Shown piece after piece: positions 8,555-63,414 of a DNA stretch of 64,000 nt. The notes beneath the pieces were generated by a model. That model was not told where the DNA came from. It worked only from the letters and a program-made list of their open reading frames with translations, and did not search any database. A program made the position numbers and the translations under genes. How positions within the stretch are numbered: position 1 is the stretch's first letter; the number at the start of each line of letters is the position of its first letter. This DNA is from Escherichia coli (GTDB lineage: Bacteria > Pseudomonadota > Gammaproteobacteria > Enterobacterales > Enterobacteriaceae): NCBI RefSeq assembly GCF_003334355.1, contig NZ_QOWP01000008.1, one strand, 5' to 3'.

Positions 8555-10423
8555 TTAGATTTCGACCTGAGTACCCAGTTCGATAACCCTGTTTGGCGGG
8601 ATTTCAAATTGATCTGGTGCACGCAGCGCATTACGTTGCAGCAGCAAGTACAGCTTGCCGCGCAGACGCAAATACCACGGGCGTTTGCCGAGGATCAACG
8701 ACTCATGCGACATAAAGAAGGAGGTTTCCATCATCCGGCAACTTAATCCTTCCAGACCGCAGCGGTGGAAAACTTCTTCTACGTTTGGCGTTTCTCGCCA
8801 ACCATAACTTGCCACCACGCGCCAGAAAGTGGGCGACAGTTGTTCAATCTGTACCCGACGGACGTTATGGACATATGGAGCGTCTTCGGTGCGCAGAGTT
8901 AACAGAATCACCCGCTCATGCAATACCTTGTTATGTTTAAGGTTATGCATCAGCGCAAAGGGAATGACGTTGATTGCACGCGACATATACACCGCGGTCC
9001 CGGGCACGCGAACAGGCGGTGATTTCTCCAGCGAAGCAATCATCGCTTCCAGAGAGTTACCATGTTCATGCATCCGCCGCAGCAAGCGGAAACGCTCGCT
9101 CTTCCAGGTGGTCATCACGATAAACATCACAGTACCGAGGCTCAATGGCAACCAGCCGCCGGAGAGCAGTTTATCGAGGTTAGCGGTGAACAATGGAATA
9201 TCGACACAAAGGAAAGCAATCAGGATCAGCGCAACAAAATACTTATTCCAGTGCCAGTTCTGACGTGCCACGGTAGTCGAGAGAATAGACGTCAGCACCA
9301 TGGTTCCGGTCACCGCAATCCCGTACGCCGCCGCCAGGTTGCTGGAGTGCTCAAAGCTGACAATCACAATCACGACCGCGACATAGAGCATCCAGTTCAC
9401 AAACGGAATATAGATTTGCCCTGACTCCATTTCGGAGGTGTGAATAATGCGCATCGGCGACAAATATCCCAGACGTACCGCCTGACGCGTCAATGAAAAG
9501 ACGCCAGAGATAACCGCCTGCGAGGCGATTACCGTCGCCAGTGCGGCGATGATCAGCAGCGGGATCAGCGCCCAGTCCGGTGCCAAAAGGAAGAACGGGT
9601 TCTTAATCGCTTCCGGGTTCTTTAACAACAGCGCTCCCTGGCCGAAGTAATTAAGAGTTAAGGAAGGTAATACGACAGTGAACCACGCCAGACGAATAGG
9701 GAACTTACCAAAGTGTCCCATATCAGCATACAGCGCCTCGACCCCCGTAATCGACAGCACCACTGCCCCTAATGCAATAAAAGAAACCGTTTTGTATTCA
9801 AGGAAGAAATGCACCGCCCACATAGGATTCAGCGCATGCAGCACTTCCGGGTTAGCAATAATGCTACGTAACCCCAGTCCTGCCAGAATCAAAAACCAGG
9901 TCAGCATGATCGGCGCAAACAGCTTACCGACCATAGCCGTGCCATGCTTTTGAATCATAAATAATAAAGTGAGAACGATAATTGAGAGGGGAACTATCCA
10001 GGTATCCAGCTGCGGGGCGACGATTTCCAGACCTTCAATGGCTGACATCACCGAAATAGCGGGTGTTATGACGACTTCACCATAGAAAAAGCTGCCGCCG
10101 ATTAGCCCCATAATCACCAGCATTGATGTGGTTCGCGCCGACGTATTACGCCCGGCAAGCGACATCAACGTCAGGATCCCCCCCTCACCGGCGTTATCTG
10201 CCCGCATCACGAAGGTGAGATATTTAATGGAAACCACAAAGATTAGCAGCCAGAAGATCAGCGATAAAAAGCCAAACACGGCATCGCGTTCAACGCCAAA
10301 ACCAAACTGGCCGGACAAACATTCACGAAGTGTATATAACGGGCTGGTACCAATATCGCCGTAGACAACTCCAATCGCCGCGAGGGTAATCGCGGGCAAT
10401 GATTGCTTATTATCAGTGCTCAT
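8555..10423 (-). CDS. kup: Low-affinity K+ uptake transporter Kup (TrkD)
   Basis: 622 aa, ATG start; multi-TM N-terminal domain plus cytoplasmic C-terminal domain; recognised as Kup. Confidence 0.95.
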
Positions 10424-10645
10424 AGACTAGTCTTTCGTTGAAATATGAAATGTGTGCTTAGTCCCTTGGCCCACAAAAAAGCGCACAGTATGCACGATTA
10501 ACGGCAAAATCGTACTCCTAAATGCGGCCACATTAACCTGGCTCAAAGAAAAATACCCCCCCTTTGAGACTATTTTAGCCACCAGCAAGAAACGTCTATA
10601 CTCGCAATTTACGCAGAACTTTTGACGAAAGGACGCCACTTCATT

Positions 10646-12142
10646 ATGGCTCACCCTCATTTATTAGCGGAAAGAATTTCCCGCCTGAGCAGTTCGTTGG
10701 AAAAGGGGCTTTATGAACGTAGCCACGCCATCCGCTTGTGTTTATTAGCGGCATTAAGTGGTGAAAGTGTGTTCCTCCTTGGCCCGCCAGGTATTGCCAA
10801 AAGTTTGATCGCCCGGCGCTTAAAATTCGCCTTTCAGAATGCCCGCGCGTTTGAATATCTGATGACCCGCTTCTCCACGCCGGAAGAAGTTTTTGGTCCC
10901 CTTTCTATTCAGGCGCTAAAAGATGAAGGGCGCTATGAACGTTTAACCAGCGGTTACCTGCCGGAAGCAGAAATTGTCTTTCTGGATGAGATCTGGAAAG
11001 CGGGCCCGGCAATTCTTAATACCTTGCTCACCGCCATTAACGAGCGCCAGTTCCGCAACGGTGCACACGTAGAAAAAATCCCGATGCGCCTGCTGGTGGC
11101 GGCCTCCAACGAGCTGCCGGAAGCAGACAGCAGTCTGGAAGCGTTATATGACCGCATGCTGATTCGTCTGTGGTTAGATAAAGTGCAGGATAAAGCGAAT
11201 TTCCGCTCCATGCTGACCAGTCAACAGGATGAAAACGACAATCCGGTTCCTGATGCCTTGCAGGTCACAGATGAAGAATATGAACGCTGGCAGAAAGAGA
11301 TTGGTGAAATTACGCTGCCCGATCATGTATTTGAGCTGATTTTTATGCTGCGCCAGCAACTGGATAAATTACCGGATGCGCCTTATGTCTCGGATCGTCG
11401 CTGGAAAAAAGCGATCCGATTATTACAGGCCAGCGCCTTTTTTAGCGGTCGCAGTGCTGTTGCCCCGGTAGATCTCATTTTGCTGAAAGATTGCCTGTGG
11501 TATGACGCGCAAAGCCTGAATTTGATACAACAACAAATTGATGTATTGATGACCGGTCACGCCTGGCAACAGCAAGGGATGTTGACTTGCCTTGGCGCGA
11601 TTGTGCAACGTCACCTGCAACTCCAGCAGCAACAAAGCGATAAAACAGCCTTAACGGTAATTCGTCTGGGCGGCATTTTCAGCCGTCGTCAGCAGTATCA
11701 ACTTCCTGTTAACGTTACTGCTTCCACTCTGACTCTGCTGCTGCAAAAACCGTTAAAATTGCATGATATGGAAGTGGTTCATATCTCCTTTGAGCGTAAC
11801 GCGCTGGAACAGTGGCTGAGTAAAGGTGGTGAAATTCGCGGCAAACTGAACGGTATCGGCTTTGCCCAGAAATTGAATCTGGAAGTGGATAGCGCCCAAC
11901 ATCTTGTTGTACGCGATGTAAGTTTACAAGGCAGTACGCTGGCACTTCCCGGTTCATCGGCTGAAGGTCTGCCAGGTGAAATAAAACAACAACTGGAAGA
12001 GCTTGAAAGCGACTGGCGTAAGCAACACGCTTTATTCAGCGAACAGCAAAAATGTCTGTTTATCCCTGGCGACTGGTTAGGTCGCATTGAAGCCAGCCTA
12101 CAGGATGTCAGTGCACAGATTCGCCAGGCACAACAATGCTAA
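10646..12142 (+). CDS. ravA: AAA+ MoxR-family ATPase RavA
   Basis: ORF-track TTG-initiated 506 aa trimmed to ATG at [11 protein letters not shown] (498 aa); Walker A GPPGIAKS. Confidence 0.9.
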
Positions 12143-13587
12143 CGCTGGATACGCTTAATGTGATGCTGGCCGTCAGCGAAGAGGGATTGATCGAAGAGAT
12201 GATCATCGCGCTGCTGGCCTCACCGCAGCTGGCAGTCTTCTTTGAAAAATTCCCACGCCTGAAGGCAGCAATCACTGATGATGTTCCCCGCTGGCGTGAG
12301 GCGCTGCGCAGTCGGCTGAAAGATGCCCGAGTCCCGCCAGAACTCACCGAAGAGGTGATGTGCTATCAGCAAAGCCAGCTCCTCTCCACGCCGCAGTTTA
12401 TTGTGCAGCTACCACAGATCCTGGACTTACTGCATCGTCTGAATTCCCCATGGGCAGAACAAGCCCGACAGTTGGTTGATGCTAACAGCGCGATCACTTC
12501 AGCGTTACACACACTTTTTCTCCAGCGTTGGCGTTTAAGTCTGATCGTGCAAGCAACGACGTTAAATCAACAGCTATTAGAAGAAGAACGCGAACAACTG
12601 TTAAGTGAAGTTCAGGAACGCATGACGCTGAGCGGACAACTTGAACCGATTCTCGCAGATAACAATACCGCAGCTGGTCGTCTGTGGGATATGAGCGCCG
12701 GCCAGCTTAAACGTGGCGACTATCAGTTGATTGTGAAATACGGTGAATTTCTTAACGAACAGCCGGAACTGAAACGCCTGGCAGAGCAGCTGGGGCGTTC
12801 TCGGGAAGCCAAATCAATACCGCGCAACGATGCGCAGATGGAAACCTTCCGCACCATGGTGCGCGAACCGGCGACGGTTCCTGAGCAGGTTGATGGTCTG
12901 CAACAAAGCGATGATATTTTACGTCTCCTGCCGCCAGAACTGGCGACACTAGGGATAACGGAACTGGAGTATGAGTTTTACCGTCGGCTGGTGGAAAAAC
13001 AGTTGCTCACCTATCGCCTGCACGGTGAGTCGTGGCGTGAAAAAGTGATCGAACGTCCGGTGGTACATAAAGATTACGATGAACAGCCGCGCGGGCCGTT
13101 TATTGTCTGTGTGGATACTTCCGGCTCAATGGGCGGCTTTAATGAACAGTGTGCGAAAGCGTTCTGCCTGGCCTTGATGCGCATTGCTCTCGCTGAAAAC
13201 CGGCGCTGCTATATTATGCTATTTTCCACCGAGATCGTCCGTTATGAGCTTTCAGGCCCACAAGGCATCGAACAAGCAATCCGTTTTTTAAGCCAGCAGT
13301 TTCGTGGCGGCACCGATCTTGCCAGTTGTTTTCGCGCCATTATGGAACGCTTGCAAAGCAGGGAATGGTTTGATGCCGATGCGGTGGTGATTTCTGATTT
13401 TATCGCTCAGCGGTTGCCTGACGACGTGACGAGTAAAGTGAAAGAGCTGCAGCGGGTACATCAGCATCGCTTTCATGCCGTGGCGATGTCGGCACACGGC
13501 AAACCCGGCATCATGCGCATTTTCGATCATATCTGGCGCTTTGATACCGGGATGCGAAGCCGCCTGCTCAGACGCTGGCGGCGATAA
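12136..13587 (+). CDS. viaA: VWA-domain protein ViaA (RavA partner)
   Basis: 483 aa; C-terminal VWA/MIDAS motif (DTSGSM); start overlaps the ravA stop by 7 nt. Confidence 0.9.
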
Positions 13588-13591
13588 ATTA

Positions 13592-14584
13592 TTACAGCAG
13601 AGAAGGGACGCTCTCGCGAACAGCAGCTGGCCATACTCCACACTGAACCTGGCCGATATGCGGCAGTTGCAGCAGCAGCATAGTCAAACGAGACTGGCCG
13701 ATACCGCCGCCGATGGTCTGCGGCATTTCACCGCGCAGCAGCGCCTGATGCCACTCCAGCTCCAGGCGATCTTCGTCACCGGTCAGCGCCAGTTGATGCT
13801 TCAGCGTGTCGGCATCTACACGGATCCCCATGGAGGAAAGCTCAAACGCATCTTCCAGTACCGGGTTCCACACCAGAATATCGCCGTTCAGACCCGCATG
13901 GCCCAGCTCTGACGGGGTGCTCCAGTCATCATAATCCGGTGCGCGCACGTCGTGGCGATGACCATCGCTCAGCTTGCCGCCAATCCCGACAAGGAATACC
14001 GCGCCAAGATCTTTCGCTATCGCCCGCTCACGCCCTTTGGCATCGAGATCCGGATAACGAGACAGTAACTCCTGGCTGTGTACGAAGTGGATCTGATCCG
14101 GCAGGAACGGTGCCAGGCCAAACTCTTCGCTAACCGCAGCTTCGGTTGCTTTAATTCCCGCCCAGATCGCCTCTACCGTGCTTTTCAGAGTCGAGAATTG
14201 ACGCTCACCGTCGCCCATTACGCGTTCCCAGTCCCACTGGTCAACATAGACCGAGTGCAACGGAGAAAGACGGTCTTCATCGGGGCGAAGGGCTTTCATG
14301 TGCGTGTACAGCCCTTCGCCCGCGCTGAAGTCGTGTTGCCCTAAGGTCTGACGTTTCCACTTCGCCAGTGAATGAACCACTTCGAACTGGGCATCAGGCA
14401 GAGCTTTCACTTTTACCTGCACCGCTTTTTCACAGCCCGACAAGTTATCCTGCGTGCCATCCCCCACACGGCTAAGAATCGGCGCCTGGACTTCGATCAG
14501 CCCCAGACGTTCTTCCAGTTGGCGAGAAAAGTGAGATTTCACGAAGCTAATTTGGCGTTGTTTGGCAATGTAAGCGGTTTTCAT
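13592..14584 (-). CDS. asnA: Aspartate-ammonia ligase (asparagine synthetase A) AsnA
   Basis: 330 aa; recognised as AsnA; divergent from asnC. Confidence 0.95.
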
Positions 14585-26238: not shown

Positions 26239-26536
26239 ACGCGTGATCCGTCCTGAAGAGCGTTCACATAGATCCTGCTGATATAAAACACCCCTGTTTT
26301 CCCGTTTATTCATTGATCGAAATAAGAGCAAAAACATCCACCTGACGCTTAAATGAAGGTACTGCCTTAATTTTCTGCAGACAAAAGGCGTGACGATGGT
26401 CGAAAATGGCACTTTCGTCAGCGGGGATAATCCGTTATTGAACAATTTATCCTCTGTCCATTTCACGATGAAAAAAATGTAGTTTTTTCAAGGTGAAGCG
26501 GTTTAAATTCGTTCTCAAATTACAGTCAGGACGCGT

Positions 26537-31335: not shown

Positions 31336-33188
<1,853 letters not shown>

Positions 33189-35079: not shown

Positions 35080-43060
<7,981 letters not shown>

Positions 43061-47393: not shown

Positions 47394-48353
47394 TTATGCC
47401 ATCGACGCGTAAAGGTTTTTAATGGTTTCCCGTAACCAGACGATCTTCGGATTATGGCTGTTCCGTTTATGCCACAGCAGGGTAAAAGGAACTTCCAGCT
47501 TTTTTTGCTGGCTTTCGTCAAACGGGAGAGGAAGAGCAACCAACGGCAGTTGATGGAGTTGATTGTAGTACTGACAGTAGCGCGGCGCGGTCGCCAGTAG
47601 CAGATTGTCGGGTTGCGCTGCCATAAACAGTGACTGCTCAAATTCCGGCAGGCTCATAGCAATCGTGCGTTCGCGCCCCAGCTCCTGTAACACATTGTCC
47701 AGCGCCCAGGTGTCGCTCTGTTCCCAGCAAATGCTGATATGCGGATAACGTAAAAAGGTGTCCAGATTCCACGTTTCATGCAGTGCCGGATGATCTTTGC
47801 GTAACCAGACGCAGGGTACATCACTAAACAGCACTTCATAATCAATGGCTAACGGTAGCGAGCTTAACAGCTCCCGCGAGCGAGGATGGCTTTCGCGACC
47901 GGAAAAACCAATATCCACTTCACCACGAGTAATGGCATCTAAGGAATCGTAATCCCAGTTACGTAGTTTGATGGTCGCCTGCGGGTAACGTTGGTAGATC
48001 CGTTTCGACAGCGCATTAAGCATGATCATCATCAGCGGCGATTCCGCCGCCAACTCAAACTTCAGGCCGCGCGGTGTCTGGTGGTGCGGTTTATCCAGCA
48101 GCAGATTGCTCATTTGCATCCATTCCGCCAGATTTTGCTCCATGCTGACCATTAGCGGTGTGGGCGACAGGCCCAGCGGTGAGTTCACAAAGAGCGGGTC
48201 GTCAAACCACGCTCTTAACTTTGCCAGCGACTTACTCACCGCTGAAGGGGTCACGTTCATCCGCTTCGCCGCTTTGGTCACGCTGCGCTCCTGCATCAGC
48301 AGTTGCAGACAGAGCAGCAGATTGAGATCAAGCGTGGTGATGGATTTCTTCAT
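47394..48353 (-). CDS. yidZ: LysR-family transcriptional regulator YidZ
   Basis: ORF-track 322 aa trimmed to [40 protein letters not shown] (319 aa), an LysR-type HTH. Confidence 0.88.
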
Positions 48354-49503
48354 GAGCGGCAACGGGGCGTCCAGGCGCGACGAACATAATCAGCAACAGG
48401 CTCACTATGCTACAGGCAATCAGAATCCCGATCAGCATATTCCATGCGCCGATACCAACCACCGCTGCCAGCCAAATCCACAGTGACGAACCGCAAACCT
48501 GCGCAATACCTAAGGTCGAGCTGGCTACGCCCGCGCGTAATGAAAATGGTCCTAACGCCTGACTCATCGCTACGCCAAAACCTACCGAGAAACCGGCGCA
48601 AATCAGCGTGATACCAAACAGAGAAACCGCATGGGAAGGTGAAACGGCAAGGGTGATCCCCGCTGCAAGGAATAACACCTGCGAGGTGATCATCAACGTA
48701 CGTGGCTTAAAAATTCCCAGCGCAAATGGCGTGGAGAATGAAACGGTCATGCTGACGCCAGCGGTCAACGCCATAATGGTGGCGTATTCTCCGCGCTCAA
48801 AACCCATGATTTCCATCAGCAATACCGGCGATGTATTGACGAAAGTGAGGATCACCGAAACGCTGAGGGTGGTGATAACAACACGGCTGAGGAAAAACCG
48901 ATTAAGCAGCGACTCGCTATTTTCTCGTGGTTTGTCCGAAGCAGCGGGGGACGCTGGGCGCGTTTCTTTTAAAATAAACAAAGACAACATCAGTACCGCG
49001 ATGCCCATCATTGCCATCGCCCAGAACAGACTCTGCCACGGGAATTTAAGCATAATCAGATGTCCGAGCACTGGCGCTAACACCGGAATGATGCAGGTAA
49101 TACCGTTGAGTAATGACAGCACTTTAGCCCGACGTCGATCATCCAGCGTGTCGCGCAAAATGGCGAACGCCACTACGTAACAACAGCCTGCGCCCAACCC
49201 CTGTAGAAATCGGCCTGCAAGAAATAACGTGCTGGTTTCAGCCAGTGAACAGAACACCGAGGCAATAATAAATAGCGCCGCGCCGGGTATGGCGACCGGC
49301 TTTCTCCCTGAACGATCGGCCACTTTACCGGCAAATAACATCGCAGCTGCCATCCCCGCCAGATATACGGAGAACGCAATATGCAACTGCGCTTCGCTGG
49401 CATTGAGATCGGCGGTGATGCGCGGTAAACCAACGAGGTACATATCAATCCCGGCGGGATAAAGTAAAACCAGGGCAAAACTACAAATTAAAAAGCGGGA
49501 CAT
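48328..49503 (-). CDS. mdtL: MFS multidrug efflux transporter MdtL (YidY)
   Basis: 391 aa, 12-TM MFS; recognised; 3' end overlaps the yidZ start. Confidence 0.9.
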
Positions 49504-54396: not shown

Positions 54397-56043
54397 TCAG
54401 GATTTTTTCTTCTCGCGGCTATGCAGGCCACGTTTTTCCAGACCACGGTAAATCAGCTGCTGCTGAATAATGGTTACCAGGTTGCTGACGATATAGTACA
54501 GCACCAGACCTGACGGGAACCACAGGAAGAACACGGTGAAGATGACCGGCATAAAGGTCATGATCTTCTGCTGCATCGGGTCGGTCACTGTGGTCGGCGA
54601 CATCTTCTGAATGAAGAACATCGTTACGCCCATCAGGATCGGCAGGATGTAGTACGGGTCCTGTGCCGACAGGTCGTGGATCCATAGTGCAAACGGTGCC
54701 TGACGCAGTTCAACGGAACCCATCAGCATGTAGTACAACGCCAGGAAGATTGGCATCTGGATCAGCAGCGGGAAGCAGCCGCCCAGCGGGTTAACCTTCT
54801 CAGCTTTGTACAGCGCCATCATTTCCTGGCTGATACGCTGTTTGTCATCGCCCAGACGCTCACGCATTGCCTGAATCTTCGGCTGCAACATACGCATCTT
54901 CGCCATGGAGGTGTACTGCGCTTTGGTCAGCGGGTACATGATGCCACGAACGATAAAGGTGATGATGATAATGGAGAAGCCCCAGTTACCCACAAAGCTA
55001 TGGATCCATTTCAGCAGTTTGAACAGCGGCTGAGAGATGAACCACAACCAACCGTAATCAACGGTCAGATCCAGGTGCGGAGCAACAGCTGCCATTTTGT
55101 CCTGGATTTCCGGGCCAACCCACAGGGTGCTGTTCATCGCGCCAGTCTGACCAGGCTGAACCAGTACCGGCTGAGATTTATAGCCGATAGCGGCGATGCC
55201 GTTACCCAGATTAGCGGTATAGAAGTTGTTGGTACCGTCGTTATGCGGGATCCACGCCGTCGCGAAATACTGTTGCAGCATCGCCACCCAACCACCTTTC
55301 GAAGAGATGTTCAGGTTTTCGTTATCGGCAATGGTATCGAACTTGTATTTCTCATACTTCTCGTCAGGCGTGGAGTACGCCGCGCCACGGAAGGTGTGCA
55401 GTGCGAAGTTGCTGCTTCCGGTATCGAGATGCGGTGGCAGAGTGATGGATTGCTTCAACTGACCAAACGAGGAGATTTCCAGCGGTTTCTCGCCAGCGTT
55501 CTGCACGTTGTAGTTGACGTTGACAGCGTAATCACCACGTTTCAGGACAAACGTTTTGGTAAACGTGTTGCCTGCCGCGTCGGTATACGTCATCGGCACC
55601 TGCAGTTCGTTTTGACCTTCAGCCAGCACATAAGCGTCTTTTTCAACGTTATACAGCGGACGCGGGCCGTTAGCCGGGTTATCCGGGCCATCACGACCGG
55701 TCAGACCGCTCTGTGCCTGATAAATAAACTGCGGTGAAGTTTCCAACAGCTGGAACGGCTGGGTAGAGTTCAGCTCTTTCGGGTAAGCAGGCAGCAGAGC
55801 TTGCTCAACATCACCACCACGGGTGTTGATGGTCAGATCAAGCACGTCGGTCTTAACCGAGATCAGTTTCCCCTGGCCACTGGCCGGTACGCCCTGGTCG
55901 GCGGCGCTACCCGCTGCGGTGGTCGTTGTCTGCGTGGTCTGTTGGGCCTGAGGTTGCGGGTTTTTATCCTGCTCCCAGGCTTGCCAGATCATGAAAGACA
56001 CGAACAGCAAAGCGATGACTAAAAGATTGCGTTGCGAATCCAT
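54397..56043 (-). CDS. yidC: Membrane protein insertase YidC
   Basis: 548 aa; N-terminal TM, large periplasmic domain, conserved C-terminal 5-TM core; recognised. Confidence 0.95.
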
Positions 56044-56045
56044 CG

Positions 56046-56303
56046 TTAGTGTTCTCTGGTATCAAATGGTCCGGGCGGGACGGGATCGTCACCACCAGGG
56101 TGTAAAGGGTGGCATTTTAATACGCGTTTCACCGTCAACCAACTGCCTTTTATCACTCCAAACCTGCGCAATGCCTCAATTCCGTAGCTTGAACAGGTTG
56201 GAGTGAAACGGCAATGCGGCCCGAGTAGCGGACTAATCAGGCGTTGATAGACCCGAATGAGGGCTATCAGGACCCGCGAGCCAGGCGACAGTGGCGGCGC
56301 CAT
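56046..56303 (-). CDS. yidD: Membrane protein insertion efficiency factor YidD
   Basis: 85 aa; conserved [14 protein letters not shown] motif; overlaps the rnpA 3' end. Confidence 0.85.
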
Positions 56304-56626
56304 AATTTTTCCAACGCTTCCGAGAGAGCACGGTTATCGAGGTCGGCAACCCCTTTTTTCGCCACCACCACGAAATCCATAGCCGGGAGTTCATGTTGGC
56401 GCAGACGGAAGCTTTCACGCGTCAGACGTTTAATCCGATTGCGTTCATGGGCGCGTCGAACGTTTTTCTTGGCGACTGTAAGACCGATACGGGGATGCCC
56501 CAGCGAATTCAGGCGGCCGAGAATGGTAATTTGCGGCGTGCCAGCCCGTTGTGGCTGCTGGAAGACGAATGTGAATTGACTGGGAGTTAACAAGCGTAAC
56601 TCCCTGGGAAATGCGAGCTTAACCAC
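56267..56626 (-). CDS. rnpA: RNase P protein component RnpA
   Basis: 119 aa basic protein; recognised. Confidence 0.93.
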
Positions 56627-56642
56627 TCAGGGGTTAGCTTTA

Positions 56643-56795
<153 letters not shown>

Positions 56796-57389: not shown

Positions 57390-58793
57390 GTGTCACTTTC
57401 GCTTTGGCAGCAGTGTCTTGCCCGATTGCAGGATGAGTTACCAGCCACAGAATTCAGTATGTGGATACGCCCATTGCAGGCGGAACTGAGCGATAACACG
57501 CTGGCCCTGTACGCGCCAAACCGTTTTGTCCTCGATTGGGTACGGGACAAGTACCTTAATAATATCAATGGACTGCTAACCAGTTTCTGCGGAGCGGATG
57601 CCCCACAGCTACGTTTTGAAGTCGGCACCAAACCGGTGACGCAAACGCCACAAGCGGCAGTGACGAGCAACGTCGCGGCCCCTGCACAGGTGGCGCAAAC
57701 GCAGCCGCAACGTGCTGCGCCTTCTACGCGCTCAGGTTGGGATAACGTCCCGGCCCCGGCAGAACCGACCTATCGTTCTAACGTAAACGTCAAACACACG
57801 TTTGATAACTTCGTTGAAGGTAAATCTAACCAACTGGCGCGCGCGGCGGCTCGCCAGGTGGCGGATAACCCTGGCGGTGCCTATAACCCGTTGTTCCTTT
57901 ATGGCGGCACGGGTCTGGGTAAAACTCACCTGCTGCATGCGGTGGGTAACGGCATTATGGCGCGCAAGCCGAATGCCAAAGTGGTTTATATGCACTCCGA
58001 GCGCTTTGTTCAGGACATGGTTAAAGCCCTGCAAAACAACGCGATCGAAGAGTTTAAACGCTACTACCGTTCCGTAGATGCACTGCTGATCGACGATATT
58101 CAGTTTTTTGCTAATAAAGAACGATCTCAGGAAGAGTTTTTCCACACCTTCAACGCCCTGCTGGAAGGTAATCAACAGATCATTCTCACCTCGGATCGCT
58201 ATCCGAAAGAGATCAACGGCGTTGAGGATCGTTTGAAATCCCGCTTCGGTTGGGGACTGACTGTGGCGATCGAACCGCCAGAGCTGGAAACCCGTGTGGC
58301 GATCCTGATGAAAAAGGCCGACGAAAACGACATTCGTTTGCCGGGCGAAGTGGCGTTCTTTATCGCCAAGCGTCTACGATCTAACGTACGTGAGCTGGAA
58401 GGGGCGCTGAACCGCGTCATTGCCAATGCCAACTTTACTGGACGGGCGATCACCATCGACTTCGTGCGTGAGGCGCTGCGCGACTTGCTGGCATTGCAGG
58501 AAAAACTGGTCACCATCGACAATATTCAGAAGACGGTGGCGGAGTACTACAAGATCAAAGTCGCGGATCTCCTTTCCAAGCGTCGATCCCGCTCGGTGGC
58601 GCGTCCGCGCCAGATGGCGATGGCGCTGGCGAAAGAGCTGACTAACCACAGTCTGCCGGAGATTGGCGATGCGTTTGGTGGCCGTGACCACACGACGGTG
58701 CTTCATGCCTGCCGTAAGATCGAGCAGTTGCGTGAAGAGAGCCACGATATCAAAGAAGATTTTTCAAATTTAATCAGAACATTGTCATCGTAA
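57390..58793 (+). CDS. dnaA: Chromosomal replication initiator DnaA
   Basis: ORF-track 471 aa trimmed to the GTG start at [14 protein letters not shown] (467 aa); AAA+ Walker [12 protein letters not shown]; C-terminal DNA-binding domain. Confidence 0.95.
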
Positions 58794-58797
58794 ACCT

Positions 58798-59897
58798 ATG
58801 AAATTTACCGTAGAACGTGAGCATTTATTAAAACCGCTACAACAGGTGAGCGGTCCGTTAGGTGGTCGTCCTACGCTACCGATTCTCGGTAATCTGCTGT
58901 TACAGGTTGCTGACGGTACGTTGTCGCTGACCGGTACTGATCTCGAGATGGAAATGGTGGCACGTGTTGCGCTGGTTCAGCCACACGAGCCAGGAGCGAC
59001 GACCGTTCCGGCGCGCAAATTCTTTGATATCTGCCGTGGTCTGCCTGAAGGCGCGGAAATTGCCGTGCAGCTGGAAGGTGAACGGATGCTGGTACGCTCC
59101 GGGCGTAGCCGTTTTTCGCTGTCTACCCTGCCAGCGGCGGATTTCCCGAACCTCGATGACTGGCAGAGTGAAGTCGAATTTACCCTGCCGCAGGCAACGA
59201 TGAAGCGTCTGATTGAAGCGACCCAGTTTTCTATGGCGCATCAGGACGTTCGCTATTACTTAAATGGTATGCTGTTTGAAACCGAAGGTGAAGAACTGCG
59301 CACCGTGGCAACCGACGGCCACCGTCTGGCGGTCTGTTCAATGCCAATTGGTCAATCTTTGCCAAGCCATTCGGTGATCGTACCGCGTAAAGGCGTGATT
59401 GAACTGATGCGTATGCTCGACGGCGGCGACAATCCGCTGCGCGTACAGATTGGCAGCAACAACATTCGCGCCCACGTTGGCGACTTTATCTTCACCTCCA
59501 AACTGGTGGATGGTCGCTTCCCGGATTATCGCCGCGTTCTGCCGAAGAACCCGGACAAACATCTGGAAGCTGGCTGCGATCTGCTCAAGCAGGCGTTTGC
59601 TCGCGCGGCGATTCTCTCTAACGAGAAATTCCGCGGCGTACGTCTTTATGTCAGCGAAAACCAGCTGAAAATCACCGCCAACAACCCGGAACAGGAAGAA
59701 GCGGAAGAGATCCTCGACGTTACCTATAGCGGTGCGGAGATGGAAATCGGCTTCAACGTCAGTTATGTGCTGGATGTTCTGAACGCGCTGAAATGCGAAA
59801 ACGTCCGCATGATGCTGACCGATTCGGTTTCCAGCGTGCAGATTGAAGATGCGGCCAGCCAGAGCGCGGCTTATGTTGTCATGCCAATGAGACTGTA

Positions 59898-59898
<1 letters not shown>
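58798..59898 (+). CDS. dnaN: DNA polymerase III beta sliding clamp DnaN
   Basis: 366 aa; recognised ([17 protein letters not shown]…MPMRL). Confidence 0.97.

Positions 59899-63414
<3,516 letters not shown>

Follow-up and report, generated by a model that had tools for sequence, protein, structure and literature searches.

When two neighbouring genes of a bacterial operon overlap, the start codon of the second gene is placed within reach of ribosomes terminating on the first. Does such an arrangement couple translation of the two genes, or does it merely reflect how the genes happen to be packed? Five gene pairs from one region of the Escherichia coli chromosome raise this question. The original prediction treated their overlaps as signals of translational coupling, consistent with tight co-expression of functionally paired products. 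Here we consider spacing, ribosome-binding sites, conservation and published expression data for each pair.

Genes and overlaps in the window

The window, i.e. the whole stretch of 64,000 nucleotides that was analysed, is the oriC-proximal region of the E. coli chromosome, as seen from RefSeq annotation of a near-identical genome. Gene names and open reading frames were taken from RefSeq annotation of the strain PSS-12 record, which is 100% identical to the window over positions 10000-14000. The PSS-12 record contains a 1199-bp IS5 element that splits bglF. The window lacks this element, and annotation is therefore shifted by a constant offset beyond approximately 37.5 kb; after the correction, all annotated reading frames are intact in the window. 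The order of genes is yieP, rbs, kup, ravA-viaA, asnA, the atp operon, glmUS, the pst operon, bgl, mdtL-yidZ, tnaCAB, rpmH-rnpA-yidD-yidC and dnaA-dnaN-recF-gyrB. The 4-kb stretch around ravA/viaA has matches in 5423 of 5426 complete E. coli genomes.

There are 49 co-directional adjacent gene pairs in the window and five of them overlap, the genes of each pair being adjacent and located on the same strand:

10646 to 12142, plus strand: ravA, MoxR-type AAA+ ATPase (RefSeq annotation of an identical genome; reading frame intact)
12136 to 13587, plus strand: viaA, VWA-domain partner of RavA (annotation; third-position variation from codon 2)
12136 to 12142, plus strand: ravA/viaA overlap ATGCTAA, 7 nt (read directly from the sequence)
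31339 to 32298, plus strand: pstC, phosphate ABC permease subunit (annotation and sequence)
32298 to 33188, plus strand: pstA, second permease subunit (annotation and sequence)
47394 to 48353, minus strand: yidZ, LysR-type regulator (annotation; ATG at 48353)
48328 to 49503, minus strand: mdtL, MFS efflux pump (annotation and sequence)
48328 to 48353, minus strand: mdtL/yidZ overlap, 26 nt (sequence)
56046 to 56303, minus strand: yidD, membrane insertion efficiency factor (annotation; ATG at 56303)
56267 to 56626, minus strand: rnpA, RNase P protein (annotation; last 12 codons and stop overlap yidD)
56267 to 56303, minus strand: rnpA/yidD overlap, 37 nt (sequence)
58798 to 59898, plus strand: dnaN, beta clamp (annotation and sequence; ends ...AGA CTG TAA)
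59898 to 60971, plus strand: recF (annotation and sequence)

The geometry described in the original prediction is exact in the sequence throughout. The viaA ATG lies inside the last codons of ravA, pstC/pstA and dnaN/recF share a TAATG stop-start motif with 1-nt overlap (at 32298 and 59898, respectively), and both longer overlaps have the lengths listed above. Identical values are tabulated for K-12 (Huber et al. 2023, PMC10666635, Table S2): -7 nt for ravA-viaA, -1 for both pstC-pstA and dnaN-recF, -37 for rnpA-yidD and -26 for mdtL-yidZ. The same table marks pstC-pstA as 'CMPLX yes' and the other four pairs as 'CMPLX not'. All five spacings are already known, and they represent ordinary operon features that are correctly annotated. 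Spacing between -8 and +6 nt is found in 7 of the 49 co-directional pairs (14%), compared with 24% of unidirectional pairs in the whole E. coli genome (Huber et al. 2023, PMC10666635). Overlap density in the window is typical, not unusual. A search of Rfam gave no match at any of the five junctions, and none of the five pairs is included in a review of coupling (Brown & Wade 2025).

Spacing, ribosome-binding sites and RNA structure

For E. coli, the highest coupling efficiency is reported for downstream starts lying -4 to +3 nt from the upstream stop. Lengthening the overlap reduces coupling faster than widening the gap does, and a systematic study saw none at -25 nt (Brown & Wade 2025 review). 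A range of -8 to +10 nt has been treated as predictive of termination-reinitiation (Huber et al.), and three native E. coli pairs with -1 spacing lose reinitiation as the distance grows (Huber et al.). The view of the overlaps as coupling signals stands in this respect for the three short ones, ravA/viaA (-7), pstC/pstA (-1) and dnaN/recF (-1), which lie within the competent range of -8 to +10 nt, and not for rnpA/yidD (-37) and mdtL/yidZ (-26), which lie outside it.

We regard it as probable that these ordinary overlaps belong to two classes, with three short ones compatible with reinitiation and two long ones presenting conserved dual-coding stretches. Translation of the paired genes is probably linked at the three short overlaps only. 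In this first class, a ribosome or 30S subunit terminating on the upstream gene may restart at the downstream ATG, just a few nucleotides away from the stop. In the second class, a terminal extension of one protein would run across the end of the other gene. As the downstream ATG is located 23-34 nt upstream of the stop codon of the preceding gene, it would be too far for efficient reinitiation. Translation of yidD and yidZ probably starts by inefficient de novo initiation on mRNA traversed by ribosomes of the upstream gene, resulting in low output.

Within the window, Shine-Dalgarno (SD) sequences tend to be weaker in downstream genes at +4 nt or closer than in the others (median -3.0 versus -5.6), a trend that is suggestive but not significant in this small sample (one-sided Mann-Whitney p=0.065). 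A sequestering hairpin, with coupling through RNA unfolding, was also considered for the five starts and dropped: 90-nt windows placed there are less structured than dinucleotide shuffles (z +0.5 to +1.6). This predicted lack of inhibitory structure removes support for RNA-unfolding coupling and is silent on reinitiation.

The ravA/viaA junction

The ravA gene ends with ...CAA CAA TGC TAA, its stop codon occupying positions 12140-12142, and the viaA start codon (12136-12138) is placed within the last two ravA codons. In a survey of 80 Enterobacteriaceae loci, with one genome per species, the viaA ATG was found inside or abutting the ravA stop in 80/80 species and always in the same relative frame. 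Three geometries occur: 7-nt overlap (ATG YTR A) in 49 species, 4-nt overlap (ATGA) in 18 and 1-nt overlap (TAATG) in 13. Ten of the 18 loci with 4-nt overlap are of Klebsiella/Raoultella type, with the ATG one codon later; three of these ten are named Enterobacter sp. The -7 and -4 forms are separated by a single base at viaA position +4 (C or A), which exchanges Leu and Ile at ViaA residue 2 and adds or removes the C-terminal Cys of RavA. In the -1 forms, the RavA tail differs by 3 nt. More than one geometry is present within each of the genera Escherichia, Kluyvera and Kosakonia; therefore, the junction has changed repeatedly, and a gap has never opened. Among 5426 E. coli genomes, 5417 have a collinear ravA/viaA junction; the 7-nt overlap is annotated in all three E. 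coli records inspected, which included the most divergent allele found. In a cross-phylum table, the MoxR/ViaA COG pair has median spacing of +3 nt (q1 -4, q3 +14, n=175; Huber et al. 2023, PMC10666635).

The viaA reading frame contains two later candidate starts, GTG at codon 9 and ATG at codon 10. Positional entropy in 81 sequences passes from third positions of ravA before the overlapping ATG to third positions of viaA from codon 2 onward. Variation in codons 2-8 is dominated by third positions, as documented by codons 3, 5 and 7, whose three positions have entropies of 0.00/0.61/1.53, 0/0/1.30 and 0.23/0/1.66 bits, respectively. In many species, stop codons in the viaA frame are found 5-6 codons upstream of the ATG, and many species have lost the candidate GTG (codon 9) and ATG (codon 10). 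The switch of frame at the ATG, the upstream stops and the loss of later starts thus identify the overlapping ATG as the true start of viaA.

The viaA SD consists of an AGG core only (12126-12128). Its duplex with the 3' end of 16S rRNA has energy of -2.5 kcal/mol in the window, where it ranks 52nd of 57 genes; values for the 80 species have a median of -2.5 kcal/mol and extend from -5.8 to -1.7. As the overlap is kept in all 80 species, the SD is weak in all of them and the frame switches exactly at the ATG, coupling of ravA and viaA by termination-reinitiation is plausible. It would most likely be the main route of viaA translation, since just a 3-nt SD core is available across the 80 species and the ATG never leaves the ravA stop.

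Taken further, the junction may be under selection for termination-reinitiation, with nearly all ViaA synthesis determined by ribosomes that have completed ravA. We put this forward tentatively, giving it slightly less than an even chance. Such ribosomes would then move back by 4-7 nt in search of the viaA start. The overlap could instead be kept through coding constraint on the RavA C-terminus and the ViaA N-terminus, not through selection for coupling, and the weak SD may simply reflect low expression. The RavA/ViaA literature describes an operon under Fnr and sigma-S control, a low native level of ViaA and a weak or transient RavA-ViaA interaction; the junction is not discussed in these papers.

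The pstC/pstA and dnaN/recF junctions

The pstA gene is preceded by a strong SD (GAGGGGG, 32284-32290, -11.4 kcal/mol), situated within the last codons of pstC. The SD (GAGGG/GGAG) is kept at proper spacing in five genera, with energies from -6.1 to -11.4 kcal/mol. Relative to the pstC stop, the pstA start is placed at -1 in E. coli, Salmonella and Klebsiella, +1 in Serratia and -4 in Erwinia; the codon itself is ATG, or GTG in Serratia. Later ATG codons are present in frame at codons 3 and 6. The former is not conserved, being ACG or ACC in other genera, and spacing from the SD fits the first start only and is unfit for codon 6. Because of the conserved strong SD inside pstC, pstA can initiate independently in addition to any coupling. 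Coupling would be a contributing route next to de novo initiation, which fits the 1:1 PstC-PstA permease. Median spacing of the PstC/PstA COG pair is -1.1 nt (q1 -4, q3 +3, n=1559; Huber et al. 2023, PMC10666635).

The recF gene has a weak SD (-2.7). Ten dnaN/recF neighbourhoods were retrieved for comparison by anchoring on the invariant L34 protein. TAATG is found in the window and three E. coli-like loci, and the other seven of these 10 loci have a spacer of 138-207 nt between dnaN and recF. RecF sequences encoded at the spacer loci match exactly Salmonella enterica and Klebsiella pneumoniae proteins. Of 5426 E. coli genomes, 5425 have a collinear dnaN/recF junction. Taken together with the spacer in Salmonella and Klebsiella, this indicates that the overlap is fixed in E. 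coli and specific to the Escherichia lineage. No match to Rfam was found in the Salmonella and Klebsiella spacer. The recF ATG and the M-S-L N-terminus of the protein are conserved, and the TTG codons 6 and 7 of E. coli, the possible later starts, correspond to CTG CTA in Salmonella.

The dnaA, dnaN and recF genes are co-transcribed, and upon replacement of the operon promoter DnaN and RecF rose together, 2.8-fold and 2.3-fold, respectively (PMC10235992). This joint rise fits co-transcription and does not isolate translational coupling. A search of literature for coupling of dnaN and recF gave nothing specific. Coupling of recF would be possible in E. coli, presumably as a recent, lineage-specific arrangement and not as a conserved requirement.

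The rnpA/yidD and mdtL/yidZ junctions

The 37-nt geometry of rnpA/yidD is identical in 21/21 enterobacterial sequences. No other canonical yidD start occurs before codon 45, well into the 85-residue protein. Among eight distinct alleles, the 12-residue N-terminus of YidD is unchanged in seven, and the RnpA tail varies (ARGS, ARES, APGS, AHGS and VRGS). Nucleotide changes in the overlap of these alleles include 10 synonymous and 3 non-synonymous ones in the yidD frame, compared with 7 and 5 in the rnpA frame. Therefore, the overlapped yidD codons are under protein-level constraint. The RnpA/YidD COG pair has median spacing of -4 nt (q1 -16, q3 +1.6, n=1023; Huber et al. 2023, PMC10666635), and the enterobacterial value of -37 is thus a lineage-specific lengthening, not the family norm. 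Literature searches returned nothing specific on this overlap. Some metagenome gene callers omit yidD entirely.

Published data (Burkhardt et al. 2017) cover expression of this region. Levels of mRNA are similar for rnpA (1130), yidD (797) and yidC (1079), with ribosome densities of 183, 67.9 and 431 and translation efficiencies of 0.162, 0.085 and 0.399, respectively. YidD is translated, but out of step with its neighbours, at approximately half the efficiency of rnpA and a fifth of that of yidC. The expected tight co-expression is contradicted by these values for rnpA/yidD (0.162 versus 0.085). RnpA, a component of RNase P, and YidD, acting in membrane insertion, have unrelated functions and are not functional partners.

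At the second long overlap, the beginning of yidZ (ATG AAG AAR) is conserved in 8/8 sequences and preceded by a weak SD (-3.0). The C-terminal tail of MdtL is variable in these eight sequences and ends either 26 or 32 nt into yidZ. The TTG located three codons upstream of the E. coli yidZ ATG corresponds to a TAG stop in Salmonella, and the later candidate, ATG at codon 20, is inside the helix-turn-helix (HTH) region. No transcript evidence for co-transcription of mdtL and yidZ was found.

Comparison with known overlapping pairs

The E. coli pairs hyfH-hyfI, ydbH-ynbE and menD-menH are known cases of termination-reinitiation (TeRe), with -4/-1 overlaps (Huber et al. 2019, 2023). The pstC/pstA and dnaN/recF junctions share the TAATG -1 geometry with the native pairs tested in these studies. 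The ravA/viaA junction, known here from sequence, has the same reading-frame phase and falls within the -8 to +10 range. There are differences as well: -7 is not among the enriched spacing classes, which are -4, -1 and -8 (Brown & Wade 2025 review), and pstA has a strong SD of its own.

The classical coupled pairs rplK-rplA and trpE-trpD (Brown & Wade 2025) are likewise co-directional, the second gene starting close to the stop of the first and having a poor independent ribosome-binding site. Dependence on upstream translation was demonstrated for these pairs, whereas here we infer it, and local folding of the five starts gives no hint of the inhibitory structure needed by the RNA-unfolding model. 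The rnpA/yidD and mdtL/yidZ pairs, as conserved stretches read in two frames, resemble long dual-coding overlaps of the LptC-LptA and VasA type (median COG-pair spacing from -14 to -56 nt; Huber 2023, Table S4), from which the RnpA-YidD family differs by its median of only -4.

Alternative explanations

The most serious alternative to the two-class reading considers the overlaps neutral by-products of genome compaction and of stop-codon drift into the next gene, with independent initiation of the downstream gene and no role in expression. Drift of ravA/viaA among -7, -4 and -1, with the RavA tail varying by one residue, would agree with this, as would the variable end of MdtL within yidZ, the RnpA tail that varies next to a fixed YidD, and the spacer tolerated between dnaN and recF in sister genera. 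Moreover, overlaps of -4 evolve easily, which partly accounts for their abundance (Brown & Wade 2025 review). This explanation is nevertheless doubtful, given that ravA/viaA has kept its overlap in 80/80 species, with no gap despite repeated changes of geometry, that viaA is almost devoid of an SD for independent initiation in every one of them, and that native E. coli -1 pairs do not maintain reinitiation at increased distance.

It is considerably less likely that all five overlaps are coupling devices enforcing tight, stoichiometric co-expression of functionally paired proteins, as the original prediction would have it in its broadest form. Short overlaps in E. coli are indeed enriched for subunits of complexes (30.4% versus 6.8%; Huber et al.), PstC/PstA are listed as a complex, RavA and ViaA are functional partners encoded in one operon, and the overlap is conserved in relatives for four of the five pairs (ravA/viaA 80/80, pstC/pstA 5/5 genera within -4 to +1 nt, rnpA/yidD 21/21, mdtL/yidZ 8/8). 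Conservation does not extend to dnaN/recF, with its 138-207 nt spacer in Salmonella and Klebsiella. The overlaps of 26 and 37 nt are beyond the range of observed coupling, and yidD is translated at roughly half the efficiency of rnpA and one fifth of that of yidC. Functional pairing is similarly divided: PstC/PstA is the only pair listed as one complex, the other four being 'CMPLX not' in the table of Huber et al., and RnpA/YidD are not partners at all. In addition, 69.6% of closely spaced E. coli pairs encode no complex (Huber et al.).

Finally, it is very improbable that some of the overlaps are annotation artefacts, with the true downstream start at a later in-frame codon: although such codons exist in viaA (9 and 10), pstA (3 and 6), recF (6 and 7) and yidZ (20), and yidD is skipped by certain metagenome gene callers, a later start fails for all five genes on grounds of conservation, variation and SD spacing, and the re-mapped starts listed in a tetracycline start-site study include none of these genes, which are absent from its TetRP supplements.

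Conclusions

For most of the region, the significance of the overlaps reaches little beyond annotation quality: the starts of viaA, pstA, recF, yidD and yidZ are confirmed as real. More generally, overlap alone is no predictor of tight co-expression, as the dnaN/recF overlap is restricted to one lineage and both long overlaps exceed the length at which coupling would be efficient. If ViaA synthesis is indeed set by ribosomes finishing ravA, the ravA/viaA pair would provide a natural setting in which to examine coupling at -7, an uncommon spacing, and would be informative on how the RavA:ViaA ratio is fixed. With its naturally occurring -7, -4 and -1 forms across the 80 species, the pair would also be convenient for comparing reinitiation at these spacings, and coupling of the two genes would bear on ViaA levels in studies of aminoglycoside sensitivity.

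Repeat-like spacer between dnaN and recF

The junction of dnaN and recF, which in the window is a one-nucleotide TAATG overlap (59898), lacks the spacer that is present between the two genes in the Salmonella and Klebsiella loci fetched for comparison:

L094:3629-3827, dnaN-recF spacer, Salmonella
L095:3663-3871, dnaN-recF spacer, Klebsiella
L097:3687-3835, dnaN-recF spacer, Salmonella
L101:3732-3871, dnaN-recF spacer, Klebsiella

In all four loci this spacer consists of a long imperfect palindrome. It exists in two sequence types, in each of which a nested insert of about 59 nt is either present or absent, and these types cut across species: the Salmonella spacer of L094 resembles the Klebsiella spacer of L101, and that of L095 (Klebsiella) resembles that of L097 (Salmonella). 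A search of the Salmonella and Klebsiella spacer against Rfam gave no match. The spacer looks like a mobile intergenic repeat and may resemble ERIC/IRU elements.

The window differs at bglF (36140-38017) from E. coli PSS-12, otherwise nearly identical to it: the gene is intact in the window, and in PSS-12 it is split by an IS5 insertion of 1199 bp, duplication included.

Annotation of the junctions

Automatic annotation often misses the 37-nt overlap of rnpA and yidD. Many contigs from metagenomes and from Logan that cover this region (L083-L093) have no yidD at all among their gene calls, and on those contigs rnpA is called with 108 instead of 119 amino acids. Protein cluster 2 (90% identity) mixes RecF members (357 aa) with DnaN members (366 aa), probably through an artefact of the clustering; gene calls that run together over the dnaN/recF junction may have chained the two proteins. 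The ravA reading frame opens at a TTG (10622), eight codons upstream of the annotated ATG (10646).

RNA matches and convergent overlap

Three Rfam matches in the window, all on the minus strand, pass their respective gathering scores:

26296-26453, minus strand, STnc410 sRNA, between atpC and glmU
57900-57980, minus strand, AsdA antisense RNA, inside dnaA
63457-63499, minus strand, ES036/CssrF, end of gyrB

The AsdA match was found by Rfam in the Salmonella and Klebsiella loci too. The sole convergent overlap in the window is

2520-2554, mdtD (plus strand, ends 2554) and rbsR (minus strand, ends 2520)

where the two genes have 35 nt of their 3' ends in common.

Further candidates for translational coupling

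Three closely spaced pairs, whose downstream genes dnaN, yidC and rnpA have very weak Shine-Dalgarno (SD) sequences, were missing from the original prediction:

58794-58800, dnaA/dnaN, spacing +4 nt, dnaN SD +0.6 kcal/mol
56043-56046, yidD/yidC, spacing +2 nt, yidC SD -2.9 kcal/mol
56626-56643, rpmH/rnpA, spacing +16 nt, rnpA SD -0.1 kcal/mol

An AGR codon of yidD could not be recoded to CGU (Napolitano et al.). As candidates for coupling, these three pairs are equally good as, or better than, the overlapping pairs listed originally.
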